DNA from: a virus
Lineage: Duplodnaviria > Caudoviricetes
DNA: 64,000 bases
IMG/VR virus record: IMGVR_UViG_3300049198_000021
Coordinates: 96,001-160,000 of that record
Direction: 5' to 3' (one strand)
The position numbers were made by a program, and so were the translations under genes. Shown here in pieces: positions 5,151-7,835 of this stretch; within the stretch, counting starts at the first letter, position 1; every line of letters begins with the position of its first letter. The notes under the pieces were generated by a model, which was not told the origin of the DNA, searched no databases, and saw nothing but the letters and a program-made list of their open reading frames with translations.

Positions 5151-5194
5151 CACCGCAATTCTGACTTGACAGTGGTGGAACATTCTGATAGGTT
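5151..5194 (+). promoter_or_regulatory. Promoter with upstream conserved box
   Basis: CACCGCAATTCT-gac-TTGACA-17nt-TAGGTT. Confidence 0.65.
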
Positions 5195-5200
5195 CCTCAC

Positions 5201-5575
5201 TAATCAAATGTAGCATCACGCGCCTAGGCGGCATCTCGTTGTAAGATTGAGACCACAGGGAGGCGAGGCGGAGGTAGTAAGTCCTTGGTCGGACCAAACC
5301 CCGAGACGGACCAAACTGCGATCGAAAAGGCGGATTGTCATTTACCGAAGTGCTTGGTGTGGTAGGTAAGCCCGGTTCCAGTGGGGCCAGATGGGCAAGC
5401 CCCTTCTCACGCGTGGTAGGTCTTACAAGACCGCTCGAAGCGCGGGGATTGTTTCAAGCATCCAAACCAACACGGTAGCCCATAGTGGGTAGCGTTGGTT
5501 TGGCGGGTGGGCTCCCGAAAGCAGCCCTGTCTCCTCCCAGACTGGCCCGGCGGTGAAAGCCGCCGGGTCCTTTTT
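5201..5575 (+). ncRNA. Candidate large structured ncRNA or attenuator leader upstream of portal
   Basis: No credible ORF; promoter at the 5' end, terminator at the 3' end; long-range pairings TTGTAAGA/TCTTACAA, ACCAC/GTGGT, CCAAACCAAC/GTTGGTTTGG. Confidence 0.55.
5544..5575 (+). terminator. Rho-independent terminator
   Basis: GGCCCGGCGGT-GAAA-GCCGCCGGGTC followed by CTTTTT. Confidence 0.75.
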
Positions 5576-5591
5576 CCGGAAGTTCTTCTCC

Positions 5592-7364
5592 TTGGCTGAT
5601 AAAATCACAAAGCGGCAAGCCCGCACCTTCGCTCAGCGACAGGCGCTCTATGCTACGCGTCAGTCCAAGCAGCAGATGATGGAGAATGTCCCGCTCTTCG
5701 CGAACTGGGACTATGCCAACTGGCGCTTGATCTGGCTGGCGATCCGCCATGCCATGATCGGCGAAGTCGAGATCAAGAAGCACGGCACCGAATATCTACC
5801 CCAGCCGGAAGGTATGGACGAAAGCCAGTATTCGGCCTACCTTGATCGCGCTGTTTTCTACAACATGGTCTACCGCACCGTCACCGGCCTCACCGGTGCG
5901 ATCTATCGGCGTGACCCGCGCTTGATGAAAGCCGGCCCCAAGGTCCGCGAGCTTTCGAAGCGCATCTCCAAGGACGGCCTGTCCCTCAAGCTGTTCGCCA
6001 AGGTCATCACGCAGGAAATGCTCTCGACCGGACGCTATGGCGTTCTGGTTGACAAGACCGACGATGCAAACAGCCTGACCGCCAACCCTTACCTCGCGGG
6101 CTACACCTGCGAGAATATCTTGGACTGGACGACGACTGAGATCGATGGCCGGGACGAGTTCGACTACATCCTGCTGCGCGAGTTCAGCGTCGATCGCCGT
6201 TTCTTCGAAATGATCGCTGATCAGGTGGTTCCGAACGCCACCTACGGCCAGTTGTTCACCGTCTACCGGGTCCTCAGGCTCATCTACAACGAGATGGACA
6301 ACCGCTGGGAATACCGGCAGGAACTCTACGCTCGTGGTTCGGCCGACGCCGATCTTTCGGAAGAGCCGATCATCACGACCCCGATGGTATTTGGCGTCCC
6401 GATGAAGCGCATCCCGTTCCGCTTCTTCAATGCCACGACCAATCTAGGCGACATCGAAAAGCCGCCGATCCTCGACATCCTGACGCTCAACCTCTCGCAC
6501 TACAAGAGCTACGCTCAGCTTGAGCATGGCCGCTTCTACACCGCCAACCCGGTCTATTACGTCTCGGGCGGACAGGAAGATGACGAATACCACATCGGCC
6601 CGTCGGTCGTCTGGGAAATCGGCAACGGTGAGAAGGCCGGTATCATCGAGTTCAACGGCTCTGGTATGAAGAGCCTTGAGAACGCCTTGCAGCAAAAGGA
6701 GACGCAGGTCGCTTCGCTGGGTGGTCGGTTGCTGGGCGACTCTTCAACTGCCGGCCAGTCGGACAATCAGGTCAAGCTCAAGGACCGCAACGAAGCGTCC
6801 TTGCTTCTCAACGTCACCACGGTCCTCAACGAGAACTTCACCGAACTGCTGACCATCCTTGGAAACTGGATGAACGAACGCTCGGAAGGTCTGGAGTTCC
6901 GGGTCAACCAAGACTTCCTGCTCGATCAGGCAGCCGCCCGCGAGTTCCGCGCCATCACGATGATGTATCAGGCCGGGCTCATTGGTATCGAGATCATCTA
7001 CGAATACTTCCTCAAGGCGGATGTCATTCCTGAGTATGTGACTCTGGAAATGTTCACCAAGATGCTGGAAGATCAGGCTCAGTTCCCGAACAACCCAGAC
7101 TTCGAAAGCCGCCAGCAAGGGTTCCCGGATGCCCGGACCCAGCGCGCCGACGAACTGGCTCGCGATCTGGACGACAACGAGACCGATCGCCTCGACACCG
7201 AATTGGAATCGGACGAAGCGATCGCCGAAGAGTCCCGCAAGTCAGCCGAGAAGGTTGCCAAGTCACAGCCCAAGATCGCGCCTGTCCCGGCGACTGCCAA
7301 GCAGGCAATGCAAAAAGACGCCCCAGCGGTGGCTCCGGCCCCAAAGCCACAGCCAAAGGCGTAA
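5592..7364 (+). CDS. Portal protein (DUF4055-type); start uncertain (5553/5592/5677)
   Basis: YLP......Y.AYL.RAVFYN, GRYGVLVD, PPILDI..LNLSHY motifs; position ahead of scaffold and capsid. Confidence 0.85.
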   Translation: MADKITKRQARTFAQRQALYATRQSKQQMMENVPLFANWDYANWRLIWLAIRHAMIGEVEIKKHGTEYLPQPEGMDESQYSAYLDRAVFYNMVYRTVTGLTGAIYRRDPRLMKAGPKVRELSKRISKDGLSLKLFAKVITQEMLSTGRYGVLVDKTDDANSLTANPYLAGYTCENILDWTTTEIDGRDEFDYILLREFSVDRRFFEMIADQVVPNATYGQLFTVYRVLRLIYNEMDNRWEYRQELYARGSADADLSEEPIITTPMVFGVPMKRIPFRFFNATTNLGDIEKPPILDILTLNLSHYKSYAQLEHGRFYTANPVYYVSGGQEDDEYHIGPSVVWEIGNGEKAGIIEFNGSGMKSLENALQQKETQVASLGGRLLGDSSTAGQSDNQVKLKDRNEASLLLNVTTVLNENFTELLTILGNWMNERSEGLEFRVNQDFLLDQAAAREFRAITMMYQAGLIGIEIIYEYFLKADVIPEYVTLEMFTKMLEDQAQFPNNPDFESRQQGFPDARTQRADELARDLDDNETDRLDTELESDEAIAEESRKSAEKVAKSQPKIAPVPATAKQAMQKDAPAVAPAPKPQPKA

Positions 7365-7558: not shown

Positions 7559-7602
7559 CACCGCCATTTTAGCTTGACAGTGCATGGAAAATCTCGTATC
7601 CT
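7559..7602 (+). promoter_or_regulatory. Promoter of the scaffold/capsid operon with conserved box
   Basis: CACCGCCATTTT-agc-TTGACA-17nt-TATCCT. Confidence 0.75.
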
Positions 7603-7835
7603 TGTCGGCACATTGGAATTGAACGCGATTACCGGGGTCCGGAACAACCGCTTCTTCCACTTCCCAAACAACTGGCTCCGGGGGAGCCTTCACCCAATCC
7701 CCCAAGGTTCGGAACAAGAAGTAACGCGCCGGTGCGCCGGCAGTCAGCCTTCTTGTTCTGGGAAATCCTCTGGAGGGTCCGGAGGTCGCGACGTGAGACG
7801 CGTTTATCTCCAGAACCCTCGGTGAGGATTTCTCA

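Follow-up and report, generated by a model that had tools for sequence, protein, structure and literature searches.

The portal gene of this phage is preceded by a promoter, a stretch of ~375 nt and a strong terminator, an arrangement that raises the question of what the intervening RNA is and what it might do. The window analysed here is a 64,000-nt stretch of DNA that corresponds to bases 96001-160000 of a 176.5-kb IMG/VR phage record. The nearest isolates to the window phage are the Erythrobacter phages XM05 and vB_EliS-L02, followed by the Sphingobium phage Lacusarx, and these isolates are CbK-like siphophages with a prolate head (PMC9127768). The locus comprises the following parts, in window coordinates:

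5151-5194, plus strand: promoter, with an A/T-rich box (5151-5165), the -35 element TTGACA (5166-5171), a 17-nt spacer and the -10 element TAGGTT (5189-5194)
5200-5575, plus strand: inferred transcript of ~375 nt, its start placed 6-8 nt past the -10 element and its end at the U-run
5544-5575, plus strand: intrinsic terminator, with an 11-bp GC-rich stem (5544-5569), a GAAA-type loop and U5
5592-7364, plus strand: portal gene, with a TTG start and a weak GGAAG Shine-Dalgarno sequence, 16 nt past the terminator U-run

The ORF at 5592-7364 was identified as the portal gene by Pfam DUF4055 and by 91% identity to the XM05 portal, and its TTG start was set by conservation of the N-terminus. The promoter pattern TTGACA-N17-TAGnnT was present in 11/11 homologues examined and the A/T-rich upstream box was also conserved. 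A scan based on TATAAT missed the TAGGTT promoter, and the promoter call is made from its conservation in all homologues. No terminator-like site within the first 20 kb of the window is stronger than this terminator. Its stem sequences are wholly different among homologues and fold in all of them, with a predicted energy of -19 to -27 kcal/mol for the terminator together with the CU-rich seed region described below. The length of the RNA among homologues, taken from the promoter and terminator positions, ranges from 307 to 491 nt. The longest ORF within it encodes only 47 aa, and neither the positions nor the frames of ORFs are conserved in 10 homologues. ARAGORN found no tRNA or tmRNA gene in the window, and no Rfam 15 family matched at gathering thresholds when the whole window was searched. 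A search of sequencing runs found no run recorded as RNA with this stretch; the runs compared with it were four sets of contigs, three of them probably from DNA. A preliminary description made from the sequence alone had proposed a non-coding RNA with its own promoter and strong terminator, lacking a credible ORF, distinct from tRNA and tmRNA and lying immediately before the portal gene, and had named Rfam as a check. All of these proposals are borne out.

The upstream box and -35 element have similar counterparts elsewhere. A second promoter at window 7559-7602 (TTGACA at 7574, TATCCT) precedes the scaffold gene and is followed by a ~230-nt leader with GC-rich hairpins and no terminator (promoter and leader at window 7559-7835), and a similar box and -35 element also occur on the minus strand at G000:14658-14696.

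Homologues were gathered by blastn, DNA-pattern scans and portal-anchored searches. Twelve distinct versions were recovered, namely those of the window, L042, L036, L040, XM05, L043, L046, L047, L02 and L074 and the more divergent L054 and Lacusarx (L055). The carriers are the phage isolates XM05, vB_EliS-L02 and Lacusarx as well as metagenomic phage contigs. Each of the 12 versions lies directly 5' of a portal gene of at least 66% identity and has the same promoter type and a terminator, with the portal start 10-25 nt beyond the latter. The gene on the 5' side of the RNA varies, being a 474-aa ORF in the window, a small ORF after phoH in XM05 and a lipid-desaturase-like gene in L036, L042 and L047. 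None of the 185,579 bacterial and archaeal genomes scanned contained the specific pattern, the scan of viral sequences returned already known contigs and no further lineage, and the scan of metagenomes added one new variant, L074. A portal-profile scan found no lineage with a portal identity between 46% and 66%, and phages with a portal identity of 46% or less have short leaders. The genome papers of vB_EliS-L02 and Lacusarx and the CtrA-site paper mention neither the RNA nor the stereotyped ribosome-binding site described below, and full-text literature searches returned no description of such an RNA element. Judged by these comparisons, the RNA is a new conserved structured non-coding family in CbK-like siphophages of Sphingomonadales (Erythrobacter and Sphingobium hosts), as had been proposed: it has 12 portal-linked versions and no Rfam family.

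Two further contigs differ from these versions. At L041:2800-3000, a portal gene of 85% identity is preceded by the 3' module only (the last ~100 nt), comprising half of the variable hairpin, the small hairpin, the CU motif and the terminator, while by eye the 5' 300 nt appear to be replaced by a coding sequence on the opposite strand. L041 may have arisen by natural deletion or recombination, or else may be a chimera of the assembly. A contig from the wastewater run X10 (depth 113) matches window 5355-5451 and 5590-5670 and has 107 different letters in place of 5452-5589, another naturally occurring variant of the 3' module.

The comparison of homologues defined the following elements within the RNA:

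5213-5223, plus strand: 5' strand of the closing helix, P1 GCAUCA (5213-5218) and P1b GCGC (5220-5223), from RNAduplex on 10 homologues
5249-5256, plus strand: GAGACCAC box, kept in 9/10 aligned homologues (GGACCAC in L047)
5281-5294, plus strand: P2 hairpin GUCC [UUGGUC] GGAC, with an invariant loop and 5/6 pairs changed on both sides
5350-5360, plus strand: 3' strand of the closing helix, P1b GUGC (5350-5353) and P1 UGGUGU (5355-5360), from RNAduplex
5365-5401, plus strand: core hairpin, GGU-AA-GCCC-GGUUCC-[AGU]-GGGGCC-AGAU-GGGC-AA-GCC
5405-5448, plus strand: P5 domain, with UCUC/GGGA and CGCGU/GCGCG helices, the conserved internal loop GGUA (5415-5418)/GCUCGAA (5433-5439) and an apical GGUC-loop-GACC (5419-5432)
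5449-5456, plus strand: U-rich linker UUGUUUCA, nearly invariant and unpaired in the consensus
5462-5503, plus strand: variable hairpin CCAAACCAAC/GUUGGUUUGG with an inner stem, its 10-bp stem at 5462-5471/5494-5503
5509-5527, plus strand: P3'a hairpin GGGCU/AGCCC with loop CCCGAAAGC, which has compensatory variants in the alignment and is thermodynamically weak
5527-5538, plus strand: CU-rich CUGUCUCCUCCC containing the seed CUGUCUCCU (5527-5535), nearly invariant across aligned homologues

When the RNA sequence from the window was folded singly, the plus strand was no more stable than its shuffles (z -0.67) and the minus strand gave z -2.3. Since the single-sequence energy is unremarkable, the structural case rests on the comparison of homologues. 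An RNA from the minus strand was considered and rejected on the orientation of the promoter and terminator and on the abundance of G-U pairs in the covarying helices, which fixes the plus strand. P1 covaries in four lineages, which have GCAUCAUCG/CGAUGGUGU (L047), GCAUCAUCC/GGAUGGUGC (L02), GCAUCC/GGAUGU (L043) and GUGUGC/GCACAU (L074). The covariation score of P2 was 0.662 compared to 0.233 in shuffles (0/500). Across 10 sequences, 96-97% of the cells of the core hairpin were paired, and L074 has A-U in place of a G-C pair; P5 was 100% paired with three pairs changed on both sides and was recognisable in Lacusarx (GGAG.../...CUCC). Taken together, the core and P5 were 95.8% paired compared to 30-54% when the partners were slid by 1-3 columns, and four pairs were changed on both sides. 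The internal loop of P5 may resemble a sarcin-ricin/loop-E motif. The loop of P2, UUGGUC, may form a possible pseudoknot with GACCA of the GAGACCAC box, the bases that would pair never varying in the alignment.

The preliminary description had called the RNA highly structured and had suggested a covariation comparison. What stands of that claim is the set of helices with compensatory changes (P1, P2 and core/P5), and what does not is any excess of single-sequence stability. The long interrupted rod that it had drawn (CGCGC 5219/GCGCG 5440, TTGTAAGATT 5239/GGTCTTACAA 5419, ACCAC/GTGGT and GGGAGG/CCTTCTC) would have joined 5219-5265 to 5400-5445 and is not conserved, L040 and L043 being without the complementary 5' sequences. 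The 3' partners of the rod instead form local compensatory helices, GGUC-loop-GACC at 5419-5432 and CGCGU 5410-5414/GCGCG 5440-5444. The duplicated CGGACCAAAC that it had noted is present, although it is kept in the closest relatives only. The 10-bp stem and the GAAA hairpin, which corresponds to P3'a, were both found in the window.

Two further pairings were tried and dropped. GGGAGG at 5258-5263 pairing with CCUCCC was unconserved and absent in L040, L043 and L047, and an RNAalifold helix ACCACA/UGUGGU, together with inner helices of the 5' domain, conflicted with the better-supported P1 and P2. In the interior of the 5' domain, the folds of individual homologues disagree.

The 3' module, as judged from its sequence, has the layout of a base-pairing small RNA, with a U-rich linker, hairpins, a CU-rich seed and a terminator. 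The U-rich linker UUGUUUCA is a putative RNase E or Hfq site. The variable hairpin forms as a short CCGGC-tetraloop in L036, XM05 and L046, is longer in L043 and is absent in L047, L02 and L074. The compensatory variants of P3'a were GGCU/AGCC, GGCC/GGCC, GGUU/GACC and GGUU/AACC. The anti-Shine-Dalgarno-like motif of the preliminary description is present as CU-rich CTCCTCCC at 5531-5538. A weak local hairpin (GUCU 5529-5532/AGAC 5539-5542) shows CCUCCC in its loop, and a small hairpin presenting CCUCC was predicted in 9/10 homologues. The seed lies partly within the weak hairpin, and its predicted accessibility is not especially high (mean unpaired probability 0.12-0.63).

The seed CUGUCUCCU is fully complementary to (A)GGAGACAG, a sequence found in the window phage almost only 3-5 nt before the ATG of an ORF, in the form (A)GGAGACAG-acc-ATG, at ~40 non-structural genes. 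This was examined in an unbiased scan in which every 7-mer of the RNA was compared with its own genome, using ATG-led ORFs of at least 60 codons and a spacing of 3-9 nt. The top 7-mer was in the seed. Its complement GGAGACA lay 3-9 nt before an ATG-led ORF in 38/66 copies compared to a base rate of 3.3% (z 24.6), and the outcome was the same in XM05 (z 20.6) and L02 (z 21.5). The RNA thus has the conserved seed expected of a trans-acting small RNA, a 9-nt perfect complement to ~40 sites in its own genome. Among the genomes compared, the form of the seed in the portal leader, the count of GGAGACAG and the count for the reversed control were as follows:

XM05: leader seed CUGUCUCC; GGAGACAG 28; reversed control 2
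L02: leader seed CUGUCUCC; GGAGACAG 39; reversed control 5
G003: leader seed CUGUCUCC; GGAGACAG 42; reversed control 2
G004: leader seed CUGUCUCC; GGAGACAG 28; reversed control 3
G006: leader seed CUGUCUCC; GGAGACAG 27; reversed control 2
G005 (71% complete): leader seed CUGUCUCC; GGAGACAG 7; reversed control 0
phiCbK: leader seed none; GGAGACAG 1; reversed control 1
RcXuper: leader seed none; GGAGACAG 5; reversed control 3
DSS3P8: leader seed none; GGAGACAG 2; reversed control 6
RXM: leader seed different; GGAGACAG 0; reversed control 1
Lacusarx: leader seed variant; GGAGACAG 5; reversed control 2
G002 (L054): leader seed variant; GGAGACAG 2; reversed control 1

No comparably stereotyped ribosome-binding site was found in phiCbK. 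The genomes that have both the seed and the site are close relatives, and their co-occurrence is therefore not independent evidence. The ACAG extension of the site is presumably unable to pair with the 3' end of the 16S rRNA, assuming a typical alphaproteobacterial 16S that may not be that of the host, and on this assumption general likeness to a Shine-Dalgarno sequence does not explain the match between seed and site.

In the divergent lineages both partners differ. G002 (L054) has the site AGGGAGAC(AC) and, at the homologous place in the RNA, GUCUCCCU; Lacusarx has the site GGGAGACAC and GUGUCUCC in the RNA, the latter in the region of the variable hairpin; and the leader of RXM has GCUCCUC in a hairpin loop, with GAGGAGC among the most enriched ribosome-binding-site heptamers of that phage. 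These changes partly track each other and would fit co-evolution, though the matches are short. The cross-specificity is not clean, the G002 site being matched about as well by the seeds of other lineages. An eight-mer scan without background correction was too noisy for the divergent genomes. An RNAduplex comparison of the seed region with crudely called gene starts was uninformative (means -17.9 and -17.7), given a GC-rich background and poor gene calling.

The genes that carry the site mostly lie apart from the head genes. Outside the 96-160 kb stretch of the window, which holds the head genes, lay 65/68 GGAGAC-led ORFs, and 3/68 lay inside it. The site-bearing genes fall into two cassette types, in which each gene has its own promoter and a stereotyped, near-identical leader of ~25-30 nt:

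G000 72-94 kb, plus strand: cassette class one, small ORFs with ...GTGGAAAAAGTGCTTGACCGAATC-N-CTAGA-acgaatca..aacGGAGACAGaccATG
G000 15-65 kb, minus strand: cassette class two, ORFs with TTGACGaaccGGAAGAnnnnTCCTA...cgaatcaGGAGACAG..ATG

Those sampled were of unknown function or encoded an RNA ligase. The genomes of G000, XM05 and L02 each contain 41-57 occurrences of GTTAACCTTAAC and its complement GTTAAGGTTAAC.

As the most conserved exposed stretch of the RNA is an exact complement of the phage's own ribosome-binding site, the RNA may switch those genes off. This complementarity is the strongest pointer to a function. We consider it an evenly balanced proposition that it is a phage riboregulator blocking translation of the GGAGACAG gene class, combined with a terminator that limits read-through into the portal gene. 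A strong sigma-70-type promoter would drive the RNA and the intrinsic terminator before the portal would end it. The RNA would then pair with the stereotyped leaders, hide their Shine-Dalgarno sequence and repress the whole gene class. The promoter box of the RNA recurs before the scaffold gene, and repression of the non-structural class would set in once the structural-module promoter is active. The pairing, repression as its direction and the timing are inferred from sequence. A bolder version, which we put forward tentatively and hold at somewhat under an even chance, is that one abundant folded RNA with a single seed would silence ~40-65 early and middle genes, the seed and site co-evolving, as an early-to-late translational switch. 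In that version, the 300-nt 5' domain might constitute a novel fold that binds a protein or the ribosome; more generally, this folded domain may serve stability, protein binding or a second function.

The terminator would pass only a fraction of transcripts into the portal gene, in which case the locus would yield much RNA and little portal mRNA. The gap from the terminator U-run to the portal start is 10-28 nt across homologues (16 nt in the window), and no promoter-like TTGAC was seen just 5' of the portal start when one short-leader homologue was inspected by eye. Together these suggest that transcription of the portal must cross the terminator by read-through, and since portal mRNA would have to arise in this way, the locus would also be an attenuator that keeps portal dosage low. 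The earlier suggestion of an attenuator limiting portal output is thus plausible.

Several points weigh against the riboregulator. The pairing between seed and site is only 8-9 nt, any CU-rich motif complements a Shine-Dalgarno-like sequence so that only the 2-4-nt extension is specific, and the stereotyped site could reflect cassette duplication. Furthermore, the large conserved 5' domain is left unexplained by the model, and L041 keeps the 3' module alone.

One alternative is that the RNA acts only in cis, as a leader of the operon of the portal and structural genes, the CU motif being part of a folded platform. Such a leader would sense a metabolite or bind a phage or host factor, in the manner of a riboswitch or of lambda pR'-tR'/Q or HK022 put antitermination, and its terminator would gate the late genes. 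The RNA is always fused to the portal gene, with the short gap and the lack of a visible TTGAC noted above, and in L041 the hairpin, CU motif and terminator alone precede the portal. In the more distant RXM and L161, too, the portal directly follows a promoter, a hairpin and a U-run, and the separate promoter of the scaffold and capsid genes fits a low portal dosage. As in the lambda pR'-tR' late leader (the '6S' transcript) and HK022 put, a constitutive promoter and a short terminated transcript precede late structural genes. In contrast to those systems, however, neither a Q-like factor nor a put-like two-hairpin element was identified, and the portal leader is far larger and more conserved. 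A terminator is present in every version, and no antiterminator, as a conserved alternative pairing, was seen when the alignment was inspected. The stems of the terminator vary freely and are parted from the conserved core by the variable hairpin, there is no match to an Rfam riboswitch, and a cis-acting leader leaves the exact complementarity to ~40 ribosome-binding sites unexplained. We regard a purely cis-acting role as unlikely.

The seed could instead be directed at the host. In this alternative the RNA would be a phage copy of an anti-Shine-Dalgarno small RNA with an CCUCCUCCC-type alphaproteobacterial seed (mmgR/alpha-r8, RcsR1 or cuckoo/CcsR) and would repress host mRNAs during takeover. 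In E-value mode, Rfam gave weak matches for only the last 50-80 nt of the RNA, which align end to end with anti-Shine-Dalgarno small RNAs, namely RF02278 (Betaproteobacteria toxic sRNA; 24.3 bits, gathering 50), RF02552 (RcsR1; 19.3 bits, gathering 60) and RF00519 (mmgR/alpha-r8; 18.6 bits, gathering 41). UCCUCCCUAGACU is common to XM05 and the mmgR consensus. The layout of these families (RF00519, RF02552, RF02278 and the cuckoo/CcsR type), a CU-rich seed in a loop or single strand before a rho-independent terminator, is shared by the phage RNA, in which CUGUCUCCUCCC at 5527-5538 is predicted to be unpaired or in a loop and is followed by the terminator at 5544-5575, and the expected pairing with ribosome-binding sites is likewise shared. 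However, every score is far below its gathering threshold, and the phage RNA is phage-borne, 4-5 times longer and has a conserved folded 5' domain of ~300 nt. The part that is invariant is CUGUCUCC, which matches the phage site and reaches into the complement of the phage-specific ACAG, rather than the CCUCCC tail, which varies (CCUCCG, CCUUCA and CCUCCU). A host-directed role is for these reasons improbable.

The preliminary description had also offered a structural or decoy RNA, of the phi29 packaging type, a 6S-like decoy of RNA polymerase or an anti-defence sponge, and although the RNA adjoins the portal gene and has a large conserved fold and a strong promoter, we consider this very improbable, as there is no Rfam match to pRNA or 6S RNA, the comparative fold is multi-domain without a 6S rod and central bubble, no defence-related neighbour was seen and the relative vB_EliS-L02 is reported to encode TerS and TerL (PMC9127768).

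Temporal control in large lytic phages is usually put down to proteins such as sigma factors, antiterminators and RegA/RegB. T4 RegA is a translational repressor, and RegB is a nuclease that cuts GGAG in early Shine-Dalgarno sites. The proposed riboregulator would be an RNA counterpart of T4 RegA/RegB: both would shut off many early phage mRNAs post-transcriptionally via their ribosome-binding sites, but the recogniser would be an RNA rather than a protein. Phage RNAs that pair with phage transcripts are known from the operon leaders of P1/P7 (c4) and P4 (CI), where c4 hides a ribosome-binding site; these antisense RNAs are ~77 nt long, have 1-2 targets and act in an immunity circuit. In contrast, the single seed of the present RNA would address ~40 dispersed genes, and it has no match to Rfam C4. 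If the riboregulator reading is true, an RNA that reads the phage-private ribosome-binding site of dozens of genes would be a new kind of gene-class switch and would explain why these phages keep stereotyped leaders. The RNA would also add a sizeable new structured family to the phages of a host group, the Sphingomonadales, in which hardly any riboregulation is known. As three of the carriers (XM05, vB_EliS-L02 and Lacusarx) exist in culture as isolates, the riboregulator idea is directly testable.

Other phages have different elements at the same position. In Citromicrobium phage RXM (L076:1186-1434), a ~210-nt leader with a promoter, a long hairpin and a U-run precedes the portal, and a 7-bp hairpin with GCUCCUCCCUG in its loop lies just before the ATG; this leader is not homologous to the core of the RNA element. 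At L161:1000-1075, where the portal is 40% identical, TTGACA is followed after ~35 nt by a hairpin (GACCGGTCTCTTCGGAGCCGGTC), a T-run and a ribosome-binding site, a minimal promoter-terminator-portal arrangement. The order of promoter, hairpin and portal in RXM and L161 suggests that the portal-attenuator part may be older. In the Rhodobacterales CbK-like phages RcXuper and DSS3P8 (L077:619-850 and L079:975-1318), genes for tRNA-Arg, tRNA-Thr and tRNA-Pro lie 5' of the portal, which makes this position an RNA-gene slot across the group. In phiCbK (L078:1380-1500), a perfectly paired hairpin with the arms GGGGAGGA and UCCUCCCC and, after it, UCCUUCUCC are found just 5' of the annotated portal start.
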